Assembly: GCA_030167865.1 (NCBI GenBank)
Contig: JALAGF010001026.1
Location: 45,279 to 65,278 of the forward strand
Source of the DNA: Craspedostauros australis
Taxonomy: Eukaryota
Reading direction: 5' to 3'
DNA: 20,000 nucleotides
Numbering within the stretch: position 1 is the stretch's first letter; each line of letters opens with the position of its first letter. The notes under the pieces are model-generated. The model made no database searches. It was not told the origin of the DNA and saw only the letters and a list, made by a program, of their open reading frames with translations. This document shows, piece after piece, positions 1-20,000 of this stretch. The position numbers and the translations under genes were made by a program.

Positions 1-411
1 ATATGATGTTTAGAAATACATTTTGAGACACGAATCATGTCTGAATGAAAGGATCAAACACGAACCGTTGTGAAGATTAGTCAAATGGGTCGATGATGAA
101 AGGTGGAATCTGACACGTCATCTCGTCCATAGAATCTTCGTTGCGCTTCTTCTGGACACAACCCTTAGTTTCAGTACTGAGGCCACGTGAAGCACAATTC
201 GATGAAATTCCAACAGATGCGAGATGAGGCAAAGAACAGGTTCCGCCACAACACAACACGCAAACAGGACAACACAACAGCACGCAGAAGATCGTGGGTT
301 GACACAATTCCAAACCCAAACACGAAGACGGACACAAAACGAAAACAGGACATCTTTGAGAAGACACCAACCCAACCAACACCAACTCCAACAACAACAA
401 CAACAGCCACC

Positions 412-1089
412 ATGCCGGTAAGTACGGCTGCTGCTTCTGCTCGATTGGTTCAGCTGGGAACGAACGTGGAAAACAGCGCAGCGTGTGCAAACACGGCCGC
501 AGATTCACGATGTTGATCTCACCCAACTGTTCTTTTGACTTTCCCAACCGCCAACTGATTGATCGATCAACCCACCAAACTATCAACACACAACGCACAA
601 TGCATATTGCGCGACGAATCACGATGACACGTGCAGCGCGGAAGAAGAGGAGGAGCATCCCGTGCTGCGCCACGACCAGCGCGGCGTCGCCCAGTGGCTG
701 CACCACCAGCCCGTGCTGCCAGCACATCCACACCTGCGCCAATGCAGCCACAGCAATCCTCCGGAGGTGGCATGCTTTCCGGAATCGGATCCACCATCGC
801 CCAAGGTATGGCATTCGGTACCGGATCTGCCATCGCCCACCGTGCGGTCGGAGCCGCCGCCGGTGCCCTGACCGGAGGTGGCGAGGAGCCAGCCTCGCAG
901 CAGCCAATGGAGGTCACTGGCGGACAACCGCAGGCCCAGCAGCAGCAGATTCAGGGAGCATGCGCCCAGGACAAGCAGATGTTCTTCGATTGCCTCCAGC
1001 ACAACAGAGGCGACCAGCAGGCCTGCTCTTTCTTGTACGACACTCTCCAAACTTGCCAGCGTGAGCAGAGCTCCATGCAGTTCAGCTAA
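412..1089 (+). CDS. CHCHD2/CHCHD10 (Mix17)-like mitochondrial intermembrane-space twin-CX9C protein; exons 412-417 and 637-1089, ~152 aa
   Basis: ATG CCG at 412-417 is followed by a GTAAGT donor (418), and a CAG acceptor ends at 636. Splicing gives MPRGRRGGASRAAPRPARRRP.... The central segment GMLSGIGSTIAQGMAFGTGSAIAHRAVGA and the C-terminal C-x9-C-x10-C-x9-C (CAQDKQMFFDC...CSFLYDTLQTC) are hallmarks of this family. Confidence 0.92.
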
Positions 1090-1375
1090 TTTATCGCGTT
1101 GGACAGCTTCCTTGGATGATGGACACCGTCTCGTGAACACCTCGTCCCAGAGTACTCGTATCATCAGACAAATTAGACGATCCGCTGGGTGAAGGATGGA
1201 GTGACAAATGAAGAGCCCACACAACAAGAGAGCAGAATGGGTCGAACTCTCTGGTCTACTCTGCTCACATGATCCCAACGGAACAGTAGGCATTCTAAGA
1301 ATTGGTCTCTAGCAAGATCGAATTACCATACCAAATCTCTGCTGCTCCAACAATACAGAATCCAGCGGTTTTGAC

Positions 1376-4300
1376 CTATGCCGCGCCCTCTTGCGGATGA
1401 AAGTCCAGCTCGTGCAACTTGGGGAATCGAAGGGTGATGCTTGCCTCTTCGACGGGGTTCAGAGAGTTTTGCTTCAGCACGATGCGTTCCAACTCTTGGC
1501 ATCTGTAGATGGCGTCCGGGACAGTCTCCAATCGGTTGCTCTCAAGCAACAGCTCGCGCAGCGACGTTGGAAACGAGACCGATTGCATCCCCTGGAGTTG
1601 ATTCTCAGATGCATCCAAGTGCCGCAGACGCGTCAGCTTTGCGATGGACCCCGGCAATTGTTTCAGCCCGCATCCTCTGAGCGACAGCGTCTGGGACAGA
1701 GACGAAAACGAATATTGTGTTGGGGAAAAGAGTTGAATACAATACAATGAAGTATCGGATTCGTGGCGTAACATGGAGAAGGGATAGAGCAAGACGAGAC
1801 AAGAAGAAACTGGTGTGGTAGAACGCAGTGTCAAACGATACACAGCAGATCCATTCCAAGATATTACATACTCGTGGAAGAGGAGCATTTGTCCTCGTCC
1901 GTGAGAAAGCGCATCACCCGTTGCATCAACTTACCTCCAGATGGGGCACGCACTCGCCGAATGTGTTGGGCAGACACTGCAGAGCACATCGCTCAAGTCG
2001 CAAACTCTTCAACGATTCACCGCACAGCAACAGACTGCAAGGGAAAGTGGACACCACCGTATGCACCTTATCGTTGGTTGAAGATGTTGCGGACGTGGTC
2101 AAGCGGAGGCCAGAGAGCTGGATGGATACGCTGCTTCGATTGTCCCTGCTTCTGTTGCCTGTGGCGGCTGTGGTGCGTGTGTTGCAACCATTCTGTGTGG
2201 ATGGCAGATAATAGATGCATCGTCTCATCGAGCTCATGGATGCTTCAATTTCGTTTGTGGAAGCCGATGCTGTCGGATTGGCAGGGTCGGACCAAATGTA
2301 CTTCGAGAGTTGACCATCGCCTTGCATCGAAATTCGACACGGGAAGATCGCATGCTCAAACACCTTTGCAGCAAGGCGCGGCATCCAGGATGATTCTGAT
2401 GCGGTGTCTTCGGAGTGAGCGTCTCCCGTCCGTGGCGGCAGCAATGCCATGTGCAGTTGGCAGTACTGTGACCAAAGAAACTCGGAGCAGCAGGCGGACC
2501 GCGCGTGTCCCGAAAGGATCTCGTTCTCGATTCGTCGGTGCGCTGCTGCGTAGCTTCGTAGATAGACAGAGAACGACACGCATGCAGCGTAGATGGGAGT
2601 GATCAGAAGGTCCAGCATTGCATCGCCAGCGTCAACATCATCGCTGGCGTTCCCTGCCCGTGCCAATCGCATCAACGAACATGTAGCGAACGTGATGGAT
2701 GAATCAAGCGATTGCAACGCCGCTGTCATGGATTCTTGCCTTGCTGGGTCTGGAAACAGACGTAGCGATTCGGCGATTCGTTGCTGCAACCTTGTGATCA
2801 GTATTCCCATGATCACAGTTGAGTGCAGGCGTAGATACGCCGTATCTTTATGCGCAGCTTTTGTCTCCACATTCACTCTTTGCGAAAGGAACGACATGCA
2901 CGCGTCCAGGTTGCTGTCCACGAAGTTGCAAAGTGCGTGGATTTCGCTGTTGTTGTCTTGGCTACTGCTCGCGTCGCCATAATCCTCTGCACCAGAGTCC
3001 ATCATGTTTATCGAAATTGCCCATCCGATGCTCTTGCAAAGAGCCCTTGCTTTGTCGAGGTCGCTCGAACCATTGGATGCACCCATCGTGTCTATCTTCA
3101 GGCGATTTACTTCGGATACGAATCTTTCAAAGAAGGTTGCTTTGTGGTTCTCTCCCACCGGAGCGTTGACACTGGCATCCTCGTCGGATTGTCTTTCTTC
3201 CACCATCTGACAGCCTCTCTGCAACCATATCCAAGTGCTTTCATCACCCCGGCTGTTGCCAGCTGCGTCCATTTCATCAGATGCCAACGTGTCGGATGAC
3301 AGGAAGTGCGAAAGGATCGCAAGCTGCGTCTGGCATGAGAAGATCTGGTAGGGAACGGGGACCTTCGAGTGTGACCAAGTTCCGCCGCTGGATATGCTTG
3401 AGATCACCGTATGCATGATTGGCAGAACTGTGTCCATCGCAGCTGATGTTTCATCCTGCTCCAAAAAGTAGGAACTGATGGAAGTGATCAAAGTTGATGC
3501 GATGTGAAATGCTCCGGAATGAAGGCAAATCATGACACAATCTACGCATCTCTTGAGCAAGCAGAGGGCGTTGCGTGCGTTGAGTTGGACAGGAACCTGA
3601 AGCGTCAGTTGTTGTTTTGATTCGATCGTGGTAGAGATCTCGATGCCGCAGATTTGAAGCATCAGCTCAGTCGTTGTGGTTTGATTCGATCGAGGAGACT
3701 GCGGCGGAGGGGCTGAGTAGTGCAGTTCTGCTTCCCTCTTCTCGACGATGCCTCGGCTATCACCTCGCGCATGCGGATCCTGATCTTCTCCTCGGGCTTT
3801 GCGAATGATGCTCACATCATCTTCTGTCTGAGCCTGCAATCGGCGATTCCACGACTCCTCAAGCGACAACTCTATGGGGACTGTCTCGGCGCCTTCTGGT
3901 ACCCGTGGCAAGTCAATGTAATCGTCTTCGTCTACGAACTCATTGCCATTCCCTTCGTGAATATCATTTGTGGCTGATTGCTCGTCGTGGTCTATCACTA
4001 TCGTTGTTGTTGTTGCTGCTGCTGCTGTCGTTGATAAAGCTACACCCGGTTGCCATGGTGGCGGATCTTCACTTGCATCGTTTGTCCGCCGCCGCTTCGC
4101 AACGTGATTTTTGGTATCTACCGTCGTCGTCGTTGCTGCGGTTGCTGCTGCCGGTGCTGTTGCTATTGTTGCGGAGGGCGATGACATGGATGAAGCGTTT
4201 CGCTTGAGCCCAATCAATCTTGTCGCAGGCAATGGCAGGACTTCTGGGATGACGGTCACGCGGTCCTTGTTGAAATGCTGATAGGGACACAGTTTGTCTG

Positions 4301-5590
4301 CGCAGAATCCATCCAGCTCGTACGGGCACATGGCAGCATTTGGATCCATCCGGTTGCTGCGAATCTGTTCCACGCTTTGTGTGTGCTGATCCTTACTCTT
4401 GACACCATGTAGATGAAGAAAGTCGAGGCAAGTTTTCCACATCAAGGAGCGGCGTGGATGAACTGTGCTTTCACCTTCGTTGAGGTTCTTGGTGTGCAAC
4501 ATGGCTTTGTCGATCGCTGAAGCTTCTCTGGTGGATATCTGCAAGACTCGTTCCAGCAATTCCTTGGTGTTGATGGACGAGACTAGATGCAATGAATCGG
4601 CTGCGTCTGTGGATGCATCGTAAACGGGACGAATCTCGCAGTCCAAATTATAGAAGAATAGGGATTCATCCTCTGCTGGATTGTCAGCGGAGGTTGCGAA
4701 CAATTCCTCATCAATGGAATCCGCTGATAGATCACCATCACGGCTTGAACCCACGAACAGGCATTCGTCGTCATCGTCGTCATCATCGTCGTCATCAATG
4801 ACTATGATTTCCCTCTCCTCATTGCTTGTCTTCGACACCATCAATGACGAATCTCCTGCAGCGTCGACCGTTTGATCAATCTCGGCGTCGTTGCCTCCGT
4901 CAGCATCGTCATGACGGCGTAGCAACCTTTGCAACTTGGTGTGGCTTTTTCGAAGAGTCTCTCTCAGCTTCTTCTGCAGCTTGACATTTCGCCTTCGGCT
5001 GTACTCGAGCACTTTCTTCCGTGCCTGTAGCTGGATGTGCGCTGCCTTCAGCAGTTGCTTTCGAGATCTGTTGGTACGAAGCGCCATGAACAGGAGCGGA
5101 TACATATTGGAACACAAGGAATGAAAGAAGCATCGTAGCGCGTGGAATGAGATCAAGATTGGTTCGTCTCAAAGACGATGACGGCGTGCATTTGATGCCA
5201 TGAGAGGTCATACATTTCTCGTCCTCTTGCTTCGATTCTGGTTACTGTCTCCGCAGGAACTTACTTGGACTGTCTGATTTCGCGTTCCAGCTCCATCTTC
5301 CGCTTCTCCAGCATGCTCAAACCAGATTCATGAAAACCGACCTCTTCTCCAAGCTGTGCTGCCACCAACCGACGGTCAACTTCGTGACCCGATGAACTCA
5401 TCGCCTCCTCTACCTCCATCTCTACCTCCACCTGATCTTGTTGTTGTTCTTGATCCTTCATCGCTTCCATGTGCTCTTTCACATCCACTTGCATCTCCCC
5501 TTCATCTTCTTCACAGGGTGCAAGAGGGGATTCGGGCTCCGCCAGCGGATCCGTCGTCCGCCGCGAATCGTTGGAGCTGTTACGATCCAT
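1376..5590 (-). CDS. Large protein with a zf-C3H1 (ZFC3H1/Red1-type) zinc finger and C-terminal leucine-rich repeats; exons 5590-5265, 5067-1935, 1690-1376, ~1257 aa
   Basis: Three ORF-track segments join in frame through intron 5264-5068 (GTAAGT..AACAG, phase 2) and intron 1934-1691 (GTAAGT..CCCAG, phase 0). The finger CPYELDGFCADKLCPYQH (C-x7-C-x4-C-x3-H) lies at ~4275-4328. LRR units include LKSLRLERCALQCLP, LETLSLRGCGLKQLP, LRHLDASENQLQ, LRELLLESNRLETVP and LERIVLKQNSL, with the repeat register continuing across intron 2. The N-terminus has acidic and coiled-coil stretches. Confidence 0.8.
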
Positions 5591-7786: not shown

Positions 7787-10700
7787 CTACATCTCTTTCA
7801 GCATGAACAATGGGTCGCTTTGGTCTTCGTTCGGTTGCTGATGATGCGACTTGCGTTGTTGTTGCTGCTGCTGCTGCTGCTGTGGTTGTTGCTGTTGCTG
7901 TTGCTGTTGCTGTGGATCGCGTCGCATGCCCATGGTATTCTGCATGTTCATTCCGCCTGTATTCACATTCCCACCACCCATGGATCCTGGTTGGTTCATC
8001 ATTCGACCGGGGATGGCAAGAGGTTGTTGTGAGAATCCTTGCTGCTGAAGCGGTGCGAAGAATTGCTGGATCTGCTGCATTGTTTGCGGAGACTGCGTGT
8101 ACGGCATTTGATGGCGCGGTGGCGACCCCGGTTGCATCATCCGCATTTGAGACATTTGCTGCTGGTGTTGCTGCTGCTGCGAACGTTGTGACATCTGCTG
8201 CTGCTGCTGCTGGTTGTTTTGGTACTGTTGCTGTTGTTGCTGTTGCTGCTGCTGTTGTTGAGCCAGCTGTTGCTGAGTCTGTCCACGGCTCGAATGCTGC
8301 ATCTGTTGTGCGCGCTGCTGCTGTCGCTGCTGCTGTTGCTTCTTCTGCTGCTGCGCCATCATTTGCTGTTGTAATGCCGCGCGCTGCTGCTGAAGGCTGG
8401 CAGCGGCGTGGTTCTGGTTCATGTTGGGCATAGGCGCTTTCATGTATGGAGAGTACTGCGACTGGTGCTGACGTTGGTGCTGGCGCTGACGCTGCGAATG
8501 CTGACGTGCTGGTTGGCTGTGTTGCGACTGTTGCCGGTGTTGATGCTGCTGCTTTTGCTTCTGCATGTCCATTCTCGCGGTAGTTTGCGGCGCTCCATAA
8601 ACAGGCTTTTGCGGAGTCTTCGCCATTGTCGTTTTGCTCATCTGCGGATGCTTGCTGTGCGACTGGCTGGTTGTTTGCTTCATGCTCGATGTAGGCGCTG
8701 CTGCCTTGGGCTCGACCTTCCGCTTCCTTTGCGCAGGTCGGCTGGATGCGGCATCCTGCCGACTTGACACCGATCGTTTTCTGTCAGTTCGGCTCGATGT
8801 GACGGGCTTCTTGGCAGTGGCTGTACCAGTCTTGATGGTTGTTGCCGAATGATGCGAGGTCTGGCTTGAAGCTGATGATGCGTGCGTCGTGGAGTCCTTT
8901 GAAGTGATTGACCTTGATCGAGATGCTGTCACGGGCTTTGCCTTCCTCACAGCAAAGTTGTACCCAACGGCGATAGCAAAAGGGTCCACCCTCAGTGGAT
9001 CTCCGATATCTGGTGCTTCTGCGCGTGCCATTTCGTTGCGCCACAGTACATCGCATTGCATTGCATTGTGTTGGATGAAGGTGGTGGAACACAAGAAACA
9101 GACAAGAAACGTTGTTTGAGAATGAATTGCAAGCCACACGAGTACACACCCGAACACCCACACCCACACGTGCACACACCAGTATACACGCCCTTGTACG
9201 ATGCGCATCATGGCCATGTACCATACTTTATTCAACAACACCGGCAAGTTTCAGTCCACTTACGATCCATTGGCACAACGGCGACCGACGGGTTGGATTC
9301 CGCAATGCTGGTTGCAATCCCAAAAGAAGAGAGAGGGAACGACAGCGATTTGAGATGCGTAGCCTTCGTCAACGACGCTGCTTGTCGCCCTGGAGCCGAG
9401 CAGATTTCGGACAAATTCTTCTCAAAGACTGGGAAGGATGGAACGCATGGCAGGATTGTTTCGGTGGATTCCTTCGACGGAACAGAAAGGTCCACATGCC
9501 AGCCTGGGTGGGAGTCGATGAATGGTGGACAACGATTTGCGACGGTTTGAAGATTGAGTATCAACTGTGAGTATGCGGATGCTGCAGCAACACAAGTGTC
9601 GTGGGCGATACTGTTCTGTGCGCTGAGATCGTAATGACATCATGCAGTCTTCCGTCAAGCGTACGATAGAGACACCATCACCATCACCGTCACAATTACA
9701 ATCACCATCGCAAGCACATGCTTATGTACACATGCGAATGCATTCGAGTGAGGGTATGGCAGTACTTACCTGGTTCGCTCCACGGTTCGATCCCACTGCC
9801 CGAGGCCGACGGGACAGGTACGCAGGACGACGCCCCGTCCATATTATCTGGGTGCATGGCGACCAACAGCTTTTGTTCTGCCTTTTGCAGTTCGCTCCTC
9901 ATTTGGCTATTTGTGCGTTTGACACTCGATGAGGATCTGATTTTCTCCGATACCGTCGTTTTCATTTCATGCACCAAAGTCTCCAACGATGGCCGCAGCA
10001 CGATGAGCAATCGACGGCGGTGCAGCTTGTGCCACAGGCTCTTGCGCAGCGATCCTGGAATTCCCGGCAAGGCCTGGACCCATGTCGTGCTGGCATGCGT
10101 GCTGCGCATGTGATTCCATTGATCACGGCGTTTGTTGGCGGTGCGTTCCAGCGACGCAATGAAATCGGAAATACGAACCGACGCACGTTCCGTCTCAATA
10201 GTTTCGGACGTTCTGGCCTCGTACACGGCATTTACTCTCGATCCGGCCGCCATCTTTTTGCGTTTCAATACGGAAGAGGAGACGATGGCAGCCTTTTGAG
10301 CTTGCTTGACCACCGCCTGGTACTTCTGAACCTGTGCCTTGGTATCGGCCAGCAGCTTCTTGCAGTCTCGTTCTCGCTTGCCCGCCTTTTCGATGTTGTC
10401 CTTGTATCCCTTGAGCATCTTCAGCAACTTCTGGGTATCCGTTGGATTGTTGGTGCTGAGAGGGTTTCCGTCTGGTCATGGGAATAAAGTGTGTGTGTGT
10501 GAGCGTGGGTAAGGGTGAGTCAAAGTTGGGAAGCATAGGTGCAGCGACCACAAAAAGATGAAGCGTGCGCAAAGATTTCCCATACCTAGAAAGTTCAGAA
10601 CGCAAGACAGGCAAACAGGCAAACACGGGAGGAGGCGCGCAAGTAAATGGACATCACGGACGGCGACAGTGTGCATTGTCATCACTCACCAGCTCCAAAG

Positions 10701-13075
10701 TACTGCGAGAACTTGGTGCGGAATTGATGCAAGTGCGATTTGGTCTTTTCGACGATCTTGATGGATTCCTCCGATTTCATCAACGACGCCTTGTAGGCGT
10801 TCTCGGCATGCGACAAGCTCTTTTCCGCGTTGGTCAAGAGCTTGGTCAGATCTGCGTTCTTCTTTTCGGCCTCCGCCATCTGGGCCTGTTCGTGTTCCCG
10901 GACAGCCTCGGATCGTTGCTTGGAGGCCGTGAGTTGGCCGGTGCGTAGATCGGTCATGACGCATCGCAAGTGGCCAGCATAGGATGTGGTGACGTCGCCG
11001 AAATCGAACTTCTTGTTGACGACGTCGGGTATTTCGCCGCATACGATGGCCTCGAGGGCTTCACGGGCTGTGATGCCCCATTCTAGGAAGGTGCGTTGTT
11101 CGGAGGACGAATTCTTGCTGCTGCTGTCCTTGTCGCTGTCGCTTTTGGATTTGCGTTGGCTGTCGTGATCGCTGGACTTGTCGGAGATGGTGGACATCCA
11201 GATGCCCTCGTTGTGTATTTCGACGGAGAGCTGTCGGTTGATCTGCGTCATGACATTTTTGCGGTGCTTGTGGCGTGCCGCCGATCCAGCTCGTTCATAC
11301 GGTGACTCTTCAAGCCACTGTGGCTCGGTCTTCAACGGGAGGGGTGGGCGTAGCGCGGCTTTGTCCTTCTCCTTGTTTTGTTCGCCATGTGCTGTCGTCG
11401 ATGACGTCGTCGACGATGAAGAAGTGGGCGTTGGTGCAGGCTTTGTGCCTGGTAGCTTTGATCCTGACGGTGTTGCAACATCAGTCGTTGATGTCGCAGT
11501 TGTTGCATCTGCTGCCCGGTGGTCGCTTTCTTCGGATGCCGGAGAATTCTCTTGAATGAGCCTCTTGAGGTTCTTACGGATCTTCTCCGTCTTATCGAGA
11601 TGCCATCGGATGTACCGCTGGCTGAGCTGCTGATAGCCCGTCTGCCGGCGATGCTTGGTGCTGATGCGACTGGCCTCTGCGTCCCGCAGCTTCTTTTCGC
11701 ATTGCTTGCGCAAGCGCTCCTGCGTGGTCTTGTAGTCATTCTCGCTGCGTTTCTTGAGCTCCTCGCTGCGGGCAGCGAACTCCTGCGCCTGCTGCTGTTG
11801 CTTGAGGCGGATACGACGCAGGCGCTGCTCCCATTCAGCGCTGGCCATCTGTTCGGTGAGACGGCGCTTGCGGGCCTGCTCGCGATGCAGCTGGAGCTGC
11901 TTTTGCGCCTCTTGGCTTTGGCGCTTTCGAAGGATCTGGATGGAGGAATTGATCTTGCTCTGGTTGCTGGCGACCTTGTCCTTGTAGTGCTGCAGGAGGG
12001 TGGCCTGGTCCTTCTTCTCTTCCGCGATGGTCTTCATCTTGTACATGTCGATGTTGCGGTCTGTGCTGATCTGGTGTTCCTTGCGCTGCTCGGCGATGAG
12101 CTGCTCGATGAGTTTGGTCCCCGCAACGCAATCCTTCTCGAGCTGCTGGAGCTTGGCCTCGTACGATTTCTTGCGCTGCGCCTTCTGAAACTCCAAGTGC
12201 GACGGATCCTGATCTTCGTGTGGTCTGTCGAAGAAGGCCAGGGAGGATTGGATCTCATCCTCCAGGCTTGGCACGTCACCAACCATGTTATCCGCCAGAT
12301 CGGGCAGCAGCAATCGGCACCGTTGGTTCGGCTTCCGTGGAGGTTGAGGTTGGGATTGCGAGTTCTTGGTGCTGTCGCCCTTGTCCTTGCTCTCGCTGGG
12401 CACCGTCAACTTGATCTTGATTTTGGATGCGGCCTTCCTCTTTGCTTTTGCTTTCGCTTTCTTCTTGAGTTGCTTCATCTTTTTGGACTTCTTCAAAATG
12501 AACGCGTTGAAGTCGGTATCATCATCGTCGTCACGATCAGCATGTTTCTCCATGGCATTATCCTCCTTGCTCGTACTCTCGCTCTTGTCCTTCTCGTAGT
12601 TGTGGCCACTGATGGCAGTGGTGTTGCCCGCAGCAGCAGTCGCAATGTGCTGAGCCTCCGGATTGTCGCTATCCGTGTCCTGTCGGTCTGCTTTGCTTGC
12701 CGAGCTGCCGCCTTGCGCATCGGGTGCGGGTCGATCTACCGCATGATCGCTATCCGTGAGATCGACGACGTGGTCATTGGCATTGATCTGCTTGTGGGCG
12801 CCGTTGTTGGTGTCACCTGCGGAGACGTTGGAGTTTGCCATACTCGCATCAGAGGCCTTCTTCCACGCGTCCGCAACAACGATTTCTGCCTCCTCAGATT
12901 TGTTCGTCGCCCCAACCACCTCAACGGGCTTGGCATCATCTTTGACAGCGCTCCCTTCCACGCCATCGACGTCCATCGCGTCGATCACAACGACGGAATC
13001 GTCATCCTTCGATGCCGGTGCATCTCCTTCGGATGCGGGCGCCATCTTGCCGTCCTTGATGTGCAAGGATGGCAT
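7787..13075 (-). CDS. Large hypothetical protein with long coiled coils and a glutamine-rich C-terminus; exons 13075-10690, 10471-9770, 9503-9264, ~9018-7787, ~1519 aa
   Basis: Four ORF-track segments join in frame through three phase-1 introns: 10689-10472 (GTGAGT..CCAG), 9769-9504 (GTAAGT..CCAG) and 9263-9019 (GTAAGT..GCAG; an alternative in-frame CAG lies 9 nt further on). The likely start is MPSLHIKDGK at 13075, because the upstream part of the ORF looks non-coding. No domain was recognised. Confidence 0.75.
7855..8355 (-). repeat. CAG/CAA trinucleotide tracts encoding polyglutamine in the last exon of the large protein
   Basis: (TGC/TGT)n runs on the + strand at ~7855-7912 and ~8160-8355 translate on the - strand as poly-Q runs. 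Confidence 0.85.
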
Positions 13076-13526
13076 GGTGGAGTATGTGCTCGACAAGCCA
13101 ACAGTGTGTCTGCTCCACGAGTACGCGCGATCTACGCGTGCTGTCGCTGCGTCGACATGAGTTTCGCGTTGTTTTTGGTGTCTCGTCTCATGCGATCGGC
13201 TAAGCTCGTGATTGATGCCAGAATTGAATCGCGAGCGAACGATTTGACACGTTCGACTTTCAAAGGTATCTTTGTGTGATTGCTTTTCGCGCCCACTTTT
13301 GTTGTTTTTCTTGGTTGCACATTTGCTTGCTTGCTTTCTTGCTTGCTGTCTTGCTTGTGCTGTGACAACGGTTGTGGATGTTCGAGGTGCGATACCATGA
13401 TCACATCTGAACGCGCTGCATTGTATTGCGTGCAACAGCTCAAGCGAAGTCTTCATTTCTTCGCCGCACTTGCATTGACCACACCTCCGACCTTCATTTG
13501 GCACAAGAAACACGCGCGAACAGAGC
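13076..13526. promoter_or_regulatory. Putative bidirectional promoter between two divergent genes
   Basis: 451 bp separate the - strand ATG at 13075 from the + strand ATG at 13527. Inferred from the gene arrangement. Confidence 0.45.
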
Positions 13527-14697
13527 ATGACGACTCCCCAACGGCCTGTGCTGTCCCTGCTGGAGAAGTACTCCTCGTTGCATGAAGGCATCACTCGGAC
13601 GCGGCAAGCAACGAACGAAGTCCGACTGCAGACGGAGGCTGCGAACTGCGCCATGCAACGCCTGCGCGAGGAGCATGCTCGTTGCGAATCGCAAGCCAAG
13701 ACGAACGACCAGCAACGGCACGCATCGCAAGAACAGACGGCGGCAACGCAAGGGCAGCTCCATGCCTTGCAACAGCAGCAGGCGGCGCTGCAGGAGGAAC
13801 ATCAGACTCTGCAATCACAGCGCGATCGATTTTGGCAGCACGTGCGGCAACATCGGCGCGACTTTCTGCAGGCCTCGCAATCCTTCCGCGGTCGCTGTCG
13901 ACGATTGCAGTTGCGTGCCGAGGTTGCGGGCATGCAAGGAAGCTCTGCCGCGCTCGTGGCGTATCGTCGCGCCCACGAGGCTGCGACGACAGAGCATATA
14001 CCCCCAACGGCGACGGAGCGGCAGCTGCAAGAATCGATTGCGGAAGCCACGCGACGCCGCGATGCAGCAGCCGCAACCACTACTCTCCACGACGATGTCA
14101 CCGAGCTGCATCAGCGCATGCAGCAGCAGATGCAGCGCAAGCAGGAGCGCAAACGACAATTGCAACGGCAGTTGCATCGTATTCGGCAGGATGTGTCCGA
14201 AATCCAGCAGCAGATCGCCGCCGTGCAGCACCAAACGAACGATGCCAAGAATCGGGTCCTCGACGTGAAGAAAGGTGAGATTCACTGTGCGGGGTTTTGG
14301 AGGATGCTTGCTGTACTCCAATCTACGAGCCGCGCTGCAAGTGCTCCGCAATCGCGACTGACACATGCTTGTTTCTGGTACTAATATTCACTCTTCTTCC
14401 TCGTATGCAGCAGCAGCAGCAGAACGACAACGTAACAAAGCGCAGAAGAAGCGAAATACCATTGTGAATCCGTACCACGCATCCAAGACGAGGAAGGCGA
14501 AGGTTGCGGTGCAACAATCGGTGGCACCGGATGAAACTCTATCCTCGCCACCGGTGCCCCGACGACTTCCGCGCCCGAGGGTGGACAAAGTTCGGTCATC
14601 TCGCCGATTTGGGTGGGACGCGCATGGCGTCAACGATCCCATTGTGGACAGCGACGATGAAGATGGGTTGCTGTCATTTGTTGGGTTGGGTCGTTGA
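13527..14697 (+). CDS. Hypothetical coiled-coil protein; exons 13527-14274 and 14411-14697, ~344 aa
   Basis: Q/R/E-rich heptad-like sequence. Phase-1 donor AG|GTGAGA at 14275, branch-like TACTAAT at 14379-14385, a pyrimidine tract, and a CAG acceptor at 14410 that joins in frame to the 14365..14697 ORF. The protein ends in an acidic tail (DSDDEDGLLSFVGLGR). Confidence 0.7.
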
Positions 14698-15102
14698 GGA
14701 GAAGTCAGGAGTGCTGTGCTGCGACGAACAGTGCTCTCAAGAGAGAGAGAGCACTAGAATAAGTGCGATGGGGATGAAGAAACAAAAACAGAGATGGTGT
14801 TCGTGCAAAATGAAACATGTGGTCTTTCTACTTTTGGGTGATGTGCTGGACTGCTGTTGGTGCTGCATGATACTTCGGCTCGCACCGCGTTTGGGCGTGT
14901 CACGGGGTGAAGGGACCCCTGCTGTCAAGTTTCATCCATCAAGCCTCAGTGCGATGTTCCTAAAATACCCGTTGTTGCGCAAGGTATTTGTTCTGTATTG
15001 CAACTGAATTGGAACTGTGTCGCAACGTTCCCAACACAAGCAGCCCTGAACGACGCAGCCTTCATCCATGCATGCGCCATATTCTATACGTCTTCACATG
15101 CA

Positions 15103-16623
15103 TCAAAGCTTCAGCTCCTTGACCTTCTCCCAGGTGAAGTCCGGATCATCGCGACCGAAATGACCGTACGCCGCGGTCTTGCGCATGATGGGCCGTCTCA
15201 GGTCGAGATCCCGGATGATGCCTCCGGGGCGCAGATCGAAATTCTTCTTGACGACCTCCACCAGGTCCGCGTCCGTCATACCTTCCTTCGTCGTGCTGTA
15301 GCTATCGACGAAGACGGAGATCGGATGGGTGATGCCAATGGCGTACGACAGCTGGACGAGCGCGCGGCGGCACAGACCGGCGGCCACCAGGGACTTGGCG
15401 ACCCATCGCGCGGCGTAGGCGGCGGATCGATCGACCTTGGTGGTGTCCTTGCCGGAGAAGGCGCCGCCGCCATGGGCACCCCATCCACCGTAGGTATCGA
15501 CGATAATCTTGCGGCCCGTGAGACCGGCATCGCCGTGCGGGCCTCCGATGACGAATCGGCCGCTGGGGTTGAAATGGAAGACGGTCTCGCTGTCCAGGTA
15601 CTTCTCCGGAACGACCGGCTTGATGACGTGCTCCCGAAGGTCTGCCGCGATCTGATCTTTGCTGACGCCCTCGGAATGCTGGCATGAAATGACGATGGTG
15701 TGGACTCGTTGCGGGACCGGCACGCCGTTCTCCAATCTGTACTCGCACGTGACCTGGGTCTTGGCATCGGGTCGGACCCAGTCGCATGTTCCATTCTTTC
15801 GCACTTCCGTGATTTTGGATCCCAGCTGCGTCGCCAGCTTGTGCGTGAGCGGCATGTAGGTGTCCGTCTCGTCCGTGGCGTAACCGAACATGATGCCCTG
15901 ATCTCCGGCTCCCAGATCCTCGATCTTTCCTGCATCCACCGATTGGGCGACGTCAGCAGACTGGTCGTCGATGGCCACAATGACGTTGCACGTTTTGTAA
16001 TCGAAGCCCTTGGCCGGGTCGTCGTAGCCAATGTCCTTGATGGCGTCGCGGATGACCTGCTCGTAATTGACGGTGGCGGACGAGGTGATCTCGCCGAAGA
16101 TCATGACCATTCCGGTCTTGCAGCACGTCTCGCATGCCACGCGGGACATCTCGTCGCCCGAAACGCATGCGTCCAGGATGGCATCAGAGACCTGATCGCA
16201 GATCTTGTCTGTGGTATTGCAGCGGTGAGTTTAGAGAGGAGTTTAGAGAGAAGTATCGAGGAGTATTGTGTGTTGTGAGTTGAGTGTTGTGCATTGCGTA
16301 CAATTTGATTGAGAGCAAGAGGGACGGTTCAGAGTCGCAGTTCGATTCTCCAGAAGTGGATTCGATTGGGAGAGGAGGACAGCAGGAAGAGCAGTGATGA
16401 GTGATGAACGATCATGGCAGAACAGTTGCTCGTGTCTGACACTTGTTGCGATGGCTTGGAGATGACCATGCCAAGTCCAAGCCTGTTCCTCGAGCGTTCG
16501 CTCAAATCCAGATGTGCATCTTGTGAACAGTCGTGATGCTGTCACGTCGATGGGTGCGGGCAGGGTTGACTGACCTGGGTGGCCTTCGTTCACCGACTCG
16601 GAGGTGAAGAGATAGGTCGACAT
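15103..16623 (-). CDS. MAT: S-adenosylmethionine synthetase, canonical eukaryotic MAT; exons 16623-16575 and 16208-15103, 384 aa
   Basis: Exon 1 encodes [16 protein letters not shown] plus one G. The phase-1 intron 16574-16209 (GTCAGT..CACAG) joins it to [15 protein letters not shown]. Signature motifs [50 protein letters not shown] and TAAYGHFGR are present. Canonical length with no MATX insertions. Confidence 0.97.
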
Positions 16624-16637
16624 GATTGATGAGCAAG

Positions 16638-16675
16638 GTAGAGTAGAGTAGAGTAGAGTAGAGTAAAGTAGAGTA
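16638..16675. repeat. (GTAGA)n pentanucleotide microsatellite immediately upstream of the MAT start codon
   Basis: About 7.5 units with one variant (GTAAA). It reads (TCTAC)n on the MAT strand and ends ~14 nt before the ATG. Confidence 0.85.
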
Positions 16676-16740
16676 CGCTGTGGGAAAGCAATCGTTGAAC
16701 TGCTTCTGATTCTCTGTCTTGTTTGTTGCGTTGCTTCCTA

Positions 16741-16778
16741 GTTGTGCCTAGCTCGTTAGTTGTTGTGCCTAGCTCGTT
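16741..16778. repeat. 17-bp direct repeat GTTGTGCCTAGCTCGTT (two copies, 21-bp period)
   Basis: Copies at 16741-16757 and 16762-16778. Confidence 0.85.
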
Positions 16779-17703
16779 GTTGTACATGTGGTCGTACTTG
16801 TATCATCGTTTGCCGCTTCGTCCAAACCGCAACGCGCCCGCAACAAGAAGACCAACGGCTGCTCCGCCATGGTCGCCACGTTTCGCTTTCCTTCTTCTGT
16901 TCGCCTCGTGTTGTTGCCCATTTTTCGCGCAGCGTTGTTGTCCGAAGGTTTCCGATGTTTGGATTTTTTGTTGTTGGATCTGTCGTGTTCGTGTTTGGAT
17001 AGCTCGAGTTCTCACTGCGAGGTCTGTGGTTCTCGCTCGCATGTCTGTGTCGATGTCTTTGTCTGCCTCGGAAACCAACATCCGTTGTTGTGTCGCACAG
17101 ACAAAGTGATAACAAAATGATGATGTTGGAAGAGGAACGTGACAATGGTAGACGGACATACGGACAGACCTATAGAGAACCAGCCCACCGCAATCCACGG
17201 GACTGGATGGAACGTTCGCATGCTCACCGCACAATTTTTTTGACGGAGATGCGCGGTGTGCGTGACGGCGGAATCTTTTTTGGGAAGCCGGTGACACAAC
17301 GACGCGAGTGCGGGGGTGGCACACGTTGAGAGATCCAAATTTGCCACCAGACAACACGCGTCTTCCGCCCACAATCGTCATTGTTGCCGCCACACGCGTT
17401 GACGCGCGTCCAAGTGTCTTCGTCTTTGGATCTTTCTCGCGACAGAACTCGTCGTCTCGTGCGCAGGGGTGCAGTTTGGCTGTGCATGCTCACCAACAAA
17501 CACCCAACAACCAACTGACAAGGCACCCAACGACCAACCAAATCGAAGAGCAAACAACCAAGAAATTCAACGCCCCTCGCACCAGGCGCAAAATCATTTT
17601 CTCGCCTCTATCAACAGCCTCATCATAAATTGCCCAAAGGAGCAAATCAAACGGAATCTCTCCCACTTTCAACCAACCCAAACAACCCAAACAACCATCC
17701 ACC

Positions 17704-19116
17704 ATGACAACCAAGGTCGCCGCCGAGGAACGCAACTTCCTTTTCTCCTCCGAGTCCGTGAACGAGGGCCACCCAGACAAGCTCTGCGACCAGGTCTCCG
17801 ATGCCGTCCTCGACGCCTGCCTGAAGGCCGACCCATACTCCAAGGTCGCCTGCGAGACCGCCACCAAGGACAACATGGTCATGGTCTTCGGTGAGATCAC
17901 CACCGCCGGAAAGATCGACTACGAGGCCATCGTGCGCGAGCAGGTCCGCGAGATCGGCTTCGACTCCTTCGTCGATGACCTCAGCTCCGTCACCTCCAAG
18001 GGTCTCTCCTGCGACTCCTGCGAGGTCCTCGTCCGCATCAACAAGCAGTCCCCAGACATCGCCGGAGGAGTCCACGTCGGCAAGTCCGAGCTCGACGTCG
18101 GCGCCGGTGACCAGGGTATTATGTTCGGATACGCCTCCGACGAGACCGACAACTGCATGCCGCTCACCCACCTCATGGCCACCATGCTCGGAAAGCGCCT
18201 CACGGACGTCCGAAAGGACGGCTCCCTCTGGTGGCTCCGCCCAGACGGAAAGACCCAGGTCACCATCGAGTACACCCAGCACGCCGATGGATCCGTCACA
18301 CCAATCAAGATCCACACCGTCGTCATCTCCACCCAGCACGCCGAGCCATCCAAGGCCAAGAGAACCGAGGAGCAGAACGGAAAGGACAACCGCGAGACCT
18401 ACACCGGCGACGAGGTCATCGCCCCAACCATGGAGGAGATGAACGACCTCATCCACGAGCACGTCATCGTCGCCACCCTCAAGTCCATCAAGCTCAAGAG
18501 CGGAGAGACCGCCATGTCCATCTACAGCAAGGACACCTGCAACCTCCACATCAACCCATCCGGAAAGTTCATCATCGGAGGACCACAGGGAGACGCCGGA
18601 CTCACCGGCCGCAAGATCATCATCGACACCTACGGTGGATGGGGTGCCCACGGAGGCGGCGCCTTCTCCGGAAAGGACCCAACCAAGGTCGACCGATCCG
18701 CCGCCTACGCATGCCGATGGATGGCCAAGTCCGTCGTCAAGGCCGGACTCTGCAAGCGCGCCTGCGTCCAGCTCTCCTACGCCATCGGTGTGGCCAAGCC
18801 ACTCAGTCTCTTCGTCGAGACCTACGGAACCGAGAAGGAAGGCCTCACCGCCAAGCTCATCACCGACATCGTCAAGATCAACTTCGATGCCCGCCCAGGT
18901 GCCCTCGCCCGCGACCTCAACCTCCGCGAGCCAAAGTACAACAAGACCGCCGCCTACTGCCATTTCGGCCGCGAGCCATTTGAGGAGAACGGCATGAAGT
19001 TCTTCTCCTGGGAGGATCCAATCGACCTCACCAAGTACGCCTCCATGGCCAGCGCCGACCTCGACAAGGAGGTTGCCGACAAGAAGGAGGAGATCCTCAC
19101 CAAGTGGGTGGACTAA
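17704..19116 (+). CDS. MATX: S-adenosylmethionine synthetase, divergent MATX type, intronless, 470 aa
   Basis: All MAT motifs are present ([37 protein letters not shown]). It also has insertions absent from the neighbouring [68 protein letters not shown], and an extended C-terminus ([19 protein letters not shown]...KWVD). These match the insertion pattern that defines MATX. Very strong C-ending/GGA/CCA codon bias. Confidence 0.93.
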
Positions 19117-20000
19117 ACGCGTCCCTCGCTTCCTTTCGAATCCTACCACTCCATGTACTCCTTCCTTCGTCCAACACCAACAGCGTCATGATCATCATCG
19201 CAGCGATGGGACGAAGACAAACGCGACCTTCGTGCGTCGCGTGCTCGGCAATAACACTGCATCGAGTATAACATGTGGTACAAGATACCAACTATTATAC
19301 AATATTATTATATAATGCAATATGATATAATTCGGAGCAACCAACGACAGCACATACAATTAGCGCTACCGTGACACTGTCTTGCACTTGACCTCACCTG
19401 CACTGTATTTCATTCGCTCTATCTTCGCTGCAGAAATCTGATACATGCCGAGTCCACATGGAGACATCTGCGTGCGTACAAGCACGTGAAGGTGCATCTT
19501 TTTTCCGTTCTCTTGACTTGTCGTTCCCGGTTTTAGGGAATGCTTTCTTGCCACCGTCATAGGCGCACCTCGATTTGGTTGGTCGATCGGTTCGTTGGTT
19601 GGTTCGCAGTCTGTTGATTGTTGTTGCATTTTCTCTTCCGTCTCTCGTCGACGTCCCATGGCCTTGTTGGTGGGTGGCTCTAGCGGATGGTTGGATGAAT
19701 GAATGAATGAGTTACGTAGTGATTCGCACATACTGGTGGTAGCTCGCAAGGAAGTTAGGTAACGCTGCTTCCGATGCACAACTGTACGTATCGTGGGCAC
19801 AGGTGTAGGTACTCTGTTTGGAGTTATCGAACTCATCTATCTCTTCCTCAGTGGTATCGCCGCTCTGGAGACAAGTGTTAGGTTGTCGCAATCGCAAAAA
19901 AATCATATAATAGTATGAGTTGGGACAGACTAGCTCCGGGACTGACTCGGGACCTGACTGTCCATTCCGCGTACACGGTATTCGGTACCCAAGACCGATA

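Follow-up and report, generated by a model that had tools for sequence, protein, structure and literature searches.

A head-to-head MAT and MATX gene pair in the diatom Craspedostauros australis, possibly a rearranged piece of an older diatom gene neighbourhood

In the genome of the diatom Craspedostauros australis, a canonical S-adenosylmethionine (SAM) synthetase gene (MAT) and a gene for the divergent MATX-type enzyme lie head-to-head within a stretch of 20,000 nucleotides (NCBI GenBank assembly GCA_030167865.1, contig JALAGF010001026.1, positions 45,279 to 65,278 of the forward strand; hereafter the window, to whose first letter positions without a contig name refer). With about even confidence, we read this adjacency as what remains, after local rearrangement, of an older diatom MAT-MATX neighbourhood, and not as a conserved shared-promoter switch. 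Ancestral linkage would be indicated by direct adjacency in one other diatom order and, probably, by indirect signs in two lineages. MAT/MATX and EF-1alpha/EFL are the two textbook cases of patchy, mostly mutually exclusive paralogues, and the definition of the MAT/MATX pair is credited to Sanchez-Perez et al. 2008 and Kamikawa et al. 2009. The window genes are ordinary members of known families, whereas their linkage appears to be new; an earlier note, made from the window sequence, had suspected as much, and no description of a genomic MAT-MATX linkage was found in the literature searched, including the text of Szabova 2014 (PMC3923989), the founding 2008 and 2009 papers and the supplements lying outside that search.

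In the text of Szabova 2014 (PMC3923989), the choice between deep paralogy with differential loss and eukaryote-to-eukaryote gene transfer is presented as unsettled, and the arguments are based on presence/absence and on long-branched MATX trees. The window resembles the MAT/MATX pair of eukaryotes in having a canonical MAT plus a four-insertion MATX within the MATX clade, and departs from the literature on that pair, which in the parts available treats presence/absence and phylogeny from cDNA and expressed sequence tags, in the physical adjacency of the two genes. Co-occurrence of both enzymes, which the earlier note had described as known in some lineages only, is less exceptional in diatoms than this implies: Szabova 2014 lists five diatom species with both MAT and MATX (and two MATs plus MATX in Aureococcus), Thalassiosira pseudonana has both types (PMC4523565), named records of both were found for Asterionellopsis glacialis and for T. 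oceanica, and in Entomoneis and Cylindrotheca each genus yielded both, from different species.

Identity and structure of the two genes

Both genes are intact and divergently transcribed, and the coordinates, lengths (384 and 470 aa) and distance (1080 bp) given in the earlier note were exact. Their parts are:

15103..16208, minus strand: MAT exon 2, codons 17-384 plus stop codon (open frame, translation, Pfam)
16209..16574, minus strand: predicted MAT intron, 366 nt, ends GTCAGT/CCACAG (GT..AG), splitting the GHPDK motif
16575..16623, minus strand: predicted MAT exon 1, 49 nt, ending with the first base of a D codon; N-terminus in agreement with Nitzschia MAT P0127
17704..19116, plus strand: MATX-type SAM synthetase, single exon, 470 aa (open frame, Pfam, insertions, clade)

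The spliced MAT coding sequence (two exons, start codon at 16623) is 1155 nt long, in frame, and encodes 384 aa. Its splicing is predicted from homology, since no read or contig spans the intron. The Nitzschia MAT P0127 is likewise 384 aa long and 86% identical to the window MAT, and therefore supports the gene model; exon 2 is 86–87% identical to Nitzschia MATs. The Pfam S-AdoMet_synt N, M, and C domains were all found in MAT far above the cut-off, and in MATX the N, central, and C domains gave E-values of 2e-37, 5e-36, and 7e-61. The motif KVDRS is present in both proteins, and GHPDK in MATX and in the spliced MAT. Both enzymes look catalytically competent and are probably cytosolic, because neither has an N-terminal extension.

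Judged from its sequence, the 470-aa protein is a genuine MATX. MATX-specific alignment columns were defined as those occupied in 90% or more of 29 MATX rows and in no more than 15% of 66 other MAT rows; they form exactly four internal blocks in the window protein (residues 89-96, 217-241, 266-276, and 428-433) and a C-terminal tail (residues 454-470). Szabova 2014 describes “four specific insertions” of MATX relative to other eukaryotic MATs (PMC3923989). The insertions are absent from the window MAT, where pairwise alignment places gaps at the MATX insertion sites. The closest MATX relatives are diatoms at 83–92% identity (Cylindrotheca, Entomoneis, Pseudo-nitzschia, and Asterionellopsis B9ZZX4), with lower identity outside diatoms (haptophytes about 82%, one dinoflagellate 75%). 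A scan of viral contigs with MATX gave no match.

Two trees were computed, one of 96 rows under LG+G4 and one of 56 rows under a site-heterogeneous model and rooted on bacteria; both were quick searches with Shimodaira-Hasegawa-like approximate likelihood ratio test (SH-aLRT) support only and no bootstrap. Unnamed, mostly fragmentary sequences from a representative library served as a diverse background in the 96-row tree only. The outgroup includes some bacterial and archaeal MetK from a genome-contig scan with MAT, which returned only such MetK, at no more than 57% identity. In the 96-row tree, the window MATX fell in a 33-row MATX clade (SH-aLRT 100, stem 0.8) and, nested in it, a clade made up of 11 raphid pennate diatom rows (SH-aLRT 96); in the 56-row tree, it fell in a 16-row MATX clade (SH-aLRT 100, stem 1.13). 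Its nearest neighbours were Cylindrotheca, Pseudo-nitzschia, Entomoneis, and Seminavis. The window MAT belonged to an 11-row diatom MAT clade (SH-aLRT 97) in the 96-row tree, and in the 56-row tree to a 5-row clade with Achnanthes, two Nitzschia, and Cylindrotheca closterium (SH-aLRT 97), enclosed by a 20-row diatom MAT clade (SH-aLRT 92). The earlier assignment of the pair to canonical MAT and MATX is thus borne out by the four insertions and the clade placements, the 470-aa protein lying inside the MATX clade. By these placements, both genes seem to follow their host lineage and look vertically inherited, and neither looks recently acquired.

Haptophyte MATX was nested within diatom MATX, as sister to Asterionellopsis, under the site-heterogeneous model, and lay outside a 19-row diatom clade (98) under LG+G4; any exchange of MATX between diatoms and haptophytes may have run either way.

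The proteins share 52% identity (216/412), and the inverted-repeat arms formed by the two genes are 72–77% complementary, with a maximum of 89% over 37 nt. A recent inverted duplication, against which the earlier note had also argued on grounds of divergence, is excluded because the arms are no more complementary than this. Gene conversion between MAT and MATX was likewise rejected, as long high-identity tracts were not found.

Environmental diatom MAT records are often 333–348 aa long with an internal-Met start, and the exon-2 open reading frame (ORF) of the window (P0123, 348 aa) is of the same kind. Because such records are numerous, a 5′ intron near GHPDK may be common among diatom MAT genes, shortening prokaryote-style gene calls.

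Linkage of MAT and MATX in other diatoms

When metagenomes were scanned with MATX, 214 stretches matched, of which 184 encode relatives; the best 80 were kept, and all 80 were searched with both proteins. Apart from the window, seven loci were assigned to diatoms by the 96-row tree (L003, L009, L016, L030, L054, L067, and L074); L010 and L031 gave figures identical to those of L009 and L030 and were not counted separately.

The contig L054 (2820 bp) joins MAT to MATX. At its start, it carries 111 codons from the C-terminal end of a canonical MAT (2..334), in tandem with MATX (905..2302) on the same strand and with about 560 bp from the MAT stop to the MATX start. The MAT piece is 79–90% identical to Thalassiosirales MATs (Conticribra, Skeletonema, and Thalassiosira), and at the 90% level the MATX falls into one cluster with those of Cyclostephanos and Thalassiosira punctigera. 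Because both genes are of Thalassiosirales type, they likely come from one organism and not from a chimera.

For the other six loci, no second MAT-family gene was found in the available flanks, which are (upstream/downstream of MATX):

L003: 2.1/3.7 kb, without MAT
L009 (Seminavis-like): 4.6/6.0 kb, without MAT
L016: 8.4/0.5 kb, without MAT
L030: 10/6.4 kb, without MAT
L067: 9.7/3.9 kb, without MAT
L074 (T. oceanica-like): 2.0/1.3 kb, without MAT

Four non-diatom loci were also without an adjoining MAT, two of them haptophyte-like (L028 and L057) and two grouping with a pelagophyte (L049 and L080). For the synteny check that the earlier note had proposed for diatom and pelagophyte genomes with both genes, the contigs give a divided picture: linked, though in tandem, in L054, and without MAT in the available flanks of the six diatom and two pelagophyte-grouping contigs. 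When the window was compared with all 80 metagenome loci by tblastx and blastn, no similarity beyond the MAT and MATX genes and no shared flanking genes were found; general microsynteny around MATX has decayed.

Indirect signs of linkage come from the protein tables, which give for each protein the size of the longest contig carrying it; a few dozen sizes per side were compared by eye. Three sizes were identical between a MAT and a MATX: 22749 bp for the Thalassiosirales-type MAT P0406 and the Thalassiosirales-type MATX P0521, 28103 bp for MAT P0230 and MATX P0564, and 30943 bp for MAT P0625 and MATX P0563, the last being the exact L016 protein. The 28103- and 30943-bp matches pair one MAT cluster with one MATX cluster, the latter being closest, among named relatives, to Extubocellulus (Cymatosirales). 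Chance would be expected to yield well under one exact match, and the three equal sizes suggest same-contig linkage of MAT and MATX in two lineages. If the MAT of the L016 lineage is on the same contig, it would be located downstream of MATX or more than 8.4 kb upstream, because the 8.4 kb upstream of the L016 MATX hold no MAT.

Contiguity and content of the spacer

The two genes are separated by a short spacer in which no recognisable gene was found. Its features are:

16624..17703, no strand: divergent spacer with both 5′ regions, 1080 bp from ATG to ATG, GC content 0.51; presumed to hold the promoters
16631..16680, no strand: (GAGTA)n-like 5-nt repeat array, directly upstream of the MAT start codon (repeat search)
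16741-16778, no strand: perfect 17-nt direct repeat, copies 21 nt apart (repeat search)

None of the four spacer ORFs had a Pfam match at E ≤ 0.01 (one match at E = 0.056 is far below the cut-off), and 16624..17703 had no Rfam match at gathering score. The only sequencing run found (X1; 0.39 share of words) was aligned to the window outside the repeat stretch 16631..16680. Four X1 contigs matched at 100% identity (14826-15922, 17732-17890, 18275-18439, and 18830-19351), so that X1 pieces are confined to the gene bodies and some 235–280 nt past each stop. This pattern is what transcripts would give, the RNA nature of X1 being a guess; on that guess, two further features can be named:

14826..15102, minus strand: probable MAT 3′ untranslated region (UTR), ending where the X1 contig 14826-15922 ends
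19117..19351, plus strand: probable MATX 3′ UTR, from the X1 contig 18830-19351

It is extremely improbable that the pair is an assembly artefact in which unlinked loci were fused within the spacer, for instance at the 16631-16680 repeat. Such a join would fit the lack of any read or contig bridging 15923-17731 and the presence of the 5-nt array and the 17-nt direct repeat, but the repeats are merely 50 and 17 nt long, the window contains no N, base composition runs smoothly across the spacer, and an independent contig from another diatom (L054) also joins MAT to MATX. The (GAGTA)n-like array is the single spot where an assembler could slip.

Upstream regions and the switch idea

The earlier note had raised the possibility that MAT and MATX are held together by selection, with a shared bidirectional control region setting the MAT:MATX ratio as a two-isoenzyme switch. 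The geometry suits this idea, with a head-to-head pair around a 1080-bp spacer that holds no other recognisable gene. Both genes are also strongly codon-biased: their GC content at third codon positions (GC3) is 0.80 and 0.87, versus 0.57–0.68 in the neighbouring long ORFs (1926-5156, 7787-9247, 10682-13699, and 13527-14384), which fits the strong codon bias of highly expressed genes. A putative bidirectional promoter of two nitrate-sensitive genes is described for a diatom in the available text of PMC6779911. That pair, Phaeodactylum NR and a neighbouring nitrate-sensitive gene, resembles the window in being divergent, in its spacer of about 1 kb, and in the functional relatedness of its products; in the window, by contrast, the two partners are paralogous genes for a single enzyme, the other diatom contigs do not share the layout, and no shared motif was found.

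Against a switch, the head-to-head layout occurs in none of the seven other diatom MATX contigs (L003 and L074 offering only about 2 kb of upstream flank). In addition, the eight available MATX upstream regions (the window and the seven other diatom loci) were surveyed for shared k-mers with a threshold of six of the eight for 7-mers, which no 7-mer reached. The sole 8-mer common to five of the eight, AAGAACGT/ACGTTCTT (shuffled-sequence mean for such 8-mers, 0.01), is absent from the window spacer; it is located 150–400 nt upstream of the MATX start at:

L003:1748, L009:4215, L030:9851, L054:712, L074:1786

Because the layout is unconserved and no motif includes the window, the switch idea has no support beyond its geometry, and we consider it quite unlikely. 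The 8-mer often extends to a GAAnnTTC-type palindrome. Such a palindrome near MATX presumably resembles a heat-shock-factor site.

Origin of the linkage

Under the preferred reading, an older MAT-MATX neighbourhood would have existed in diatoms and would have been inverted in the window lineage, kept in tandem in the Thalassiosirales lineage, and broken up in others. Each gene would probably have its own promoter inside the spacer, and the two isoenzymes would probably both provide SAM to the cytosol, with regulation that differs in part. The earlier suggestion of an old retained linkage gains partial support from the MAT beside MATX in L054 and from the three equal contig sizes, and finds no echo in the available flanks of the other six loci. 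The neighbourhood may go back as far as the duplication behind MATX.

Several observations weigh against an inherited neighbourhood. No second MAT-family gene was seen in those six flanks, and two of the loci concerned (L030 and L067) share the 90% MATX cluster of L054, which makes linkage patchy even between closely related diatoms, although the source organisms of L030 and L067 might lack a MAT altogether. In T. oceanica, MAT (THAOC_10448, 2327-bp contig) and MATX (THAOC_04573, 8698-bp contig) are on separate short contigs, and the equal contig sizes are indirect evidence. MATX and diatom MATs were not adjacent in the free 56-row tree, and forcing them into one clade cost a delta lnL (log-likelihood difference) of 18.4 with a p-value of 0.162 in the approximately unbiased (AU) test, by which this clade, chosen after viewing the tree, is neither rejected nor supported. 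In the window itself, the X1 contigs leave the spacer, the intron, and exon 1 uncovered, which is no proof in either direction.

Chance adjacency offers a possible though rather unlikely account, in which an unselected, lineage-specific rearrangement in fast-rearranging diatom genomes brought the genes together and L054 is a separate accident. It is in keeping with the empty flanks of six of the seven loci, with the differing orientations (divergent in the window vs tandem in L054), with the missing flanking synteny against the 80 loci, and with the fact that the pair was picked out of many windows scanned, so that more coincidences would turn up. By chance, however, two named genes would be expected to be direct neighbours in about 2 in 10^4 cases per genome of some 10^4 genes, before allowing for the many pairs that could be noticed, and the two direct cases together with three taxonomically coherent contig-size matches far exceed that prior.

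A landing site is a further alternative, which we judge quite improbable: MATX would have been transferred into diatoms from another eukaryote and inserted beside the resident MAT by homology-assisted recombination, leaving the linkage as a mark of where it arrived. In both free trees, the MATX clade has a long stem (0.8 and 1.13) and is separate from the MATs of stramenopiles, the conserved blocks of the two genes share 72–89% nucleotide identity and could guide recombination, and horizontal spread of MATX is one of two live scenarios in the text of Szabova 2014 (PMC3923989). On the other hand, the mechanism has no direct evidence, MAT and MATX are alike in their high-GC3 style, the MATX-only tree described by Szabova 2014 was rooted on a diatom/haptophyte/Aureococcus branch (PMC3923989), and uniting MATX and diatom MAT in a single clade is not rejected by the AU test.

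A more far-reaching version of the neighbourhood reading, that MATX was born here, is unlikely. MATX would then have arisen as a tandem MAT duplicate in a diatom or ochrophyte ancestor, evolved fast, gained its four insertions, stayed linked in several diatom orders, and later passed by eukaryote-to-eukaryote transfer to haptophytes, dinoflagellates, and euglenids. The linked states under this version would be divergent in the window, tandem in Thalassiosirales, and same-contig in a Cymatosirales-like lineage.

Significance

The apparently undescribed linkage bears on the origin of MATX and merits a synteny survey of complete diatom genomes, which has become inexpensive with the chromosome-level assemblies now available. 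In diatoms, where both genes persist, MAT-MATX linkage adds a new type of evidence on this question, since gene order can reveal whether MAT and MATX go back to an old tandem duplication; a birth of MATX in this neighbourhood, if true, would settle by synteny the choice between deep paralogy and horizontal gene transfer for MAT/MATX. Diatoms that keep both enzymes are also a natural system in which to study how MATX differs in what it does. For phytoplankton, the available passages of PMC3476827 and PMC3986220 connect SAM supply with B12, methionine, and dimethylsulfoniopropionate (DMSP) physiology.

Relation to known enzymes

SAM synthetase activity and a homodimeric state have been reported for Euglena MATX, as cited in the text of PMC3923989. 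Human MAT2A/MAT1A and other solved MATs (closest PDB match, E ~1e-139) share the fold family and the conserved motifs with the window MATX, but of 45 listed PDB sequences, 32 align to it in two segments interrupted at MATX ~215-273, the site of the large insertions, and the remaining 13 align mainly to the C-terminal part of MATX. Among these 45 listed matches, the ~215-273 stretch and the C-terminal tail are uncovered, and none is named MATX.

In T. pseudonana, Thaps3:21815 (465 aa) clusters with Emiliania and Aureococcus, and Thaps3:39946 (450 aa) is of heterokont type; both are predicted to be cytosolic (PMC4523565). Their labelling here as MATX type and MAT type follows the tree description and lengths in the available passages of that paper, which do not state the genomic positions. 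T. pseudonana thus resembles the window as a diatom with one MATX-type and one heterokont-type enzyme, and differs in that Thalassiosirales MATs are 445–472 aa long and fast-evolving with altered motifs, vs the standard 384-aa MAT of the window. In a proteome study on the regulation of DMSP, the MATX-type 21815 was up 2.9-fold (PMC3986220), and a figure legend on the response to B12 deprivation names the MAT-type 39946 as SAM synthetase (PMC3476827); both passages are hints that the two isoenzymes of T. pseudonana, which appear there in different contexts, may be differently regulated.

The canonical MATs of Thalassiosirales (P0409, P0398, P0404, and others) form a fast-evolving clade (SH-aLRT 100, stem 0.56). 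In P0409, about 84 residues precede the start of the alignment to the window MAT, and in Thalassiosira sp. AJA248-18 near-invariant motifs are altered, including GAGDQG, another that reads GSYGGGALSGKD, and EGHPDK, which reads ESHPDK. MATX is conserved in Thalassiosirales while the canonical MAT diverges, and the latter may be changing function or location in this order, as far as sequences can tell.

Neighbouring genes and viral homologues

The neighbouring ORFs of the window are nearly without Pfam matches, the only ones being a zf-C3H1 in a 1076-aa ORF and leucine-rich repeats (LRRs) at 1376-1888. A viral-contig scan with MAT found, besides two contigs of giant-virus metagenome-assembled genomes (L161 and L162), MetK-like genes only. 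The two giant-virus contigs encode eukaryote-like MATs (L161:10001-11101 and L162:2682-3782) that are 62–63% identical to the window MAT and that branch amid eukaryotic sequences in the 56-row bacteria-rooted tree, at an unresolved position.

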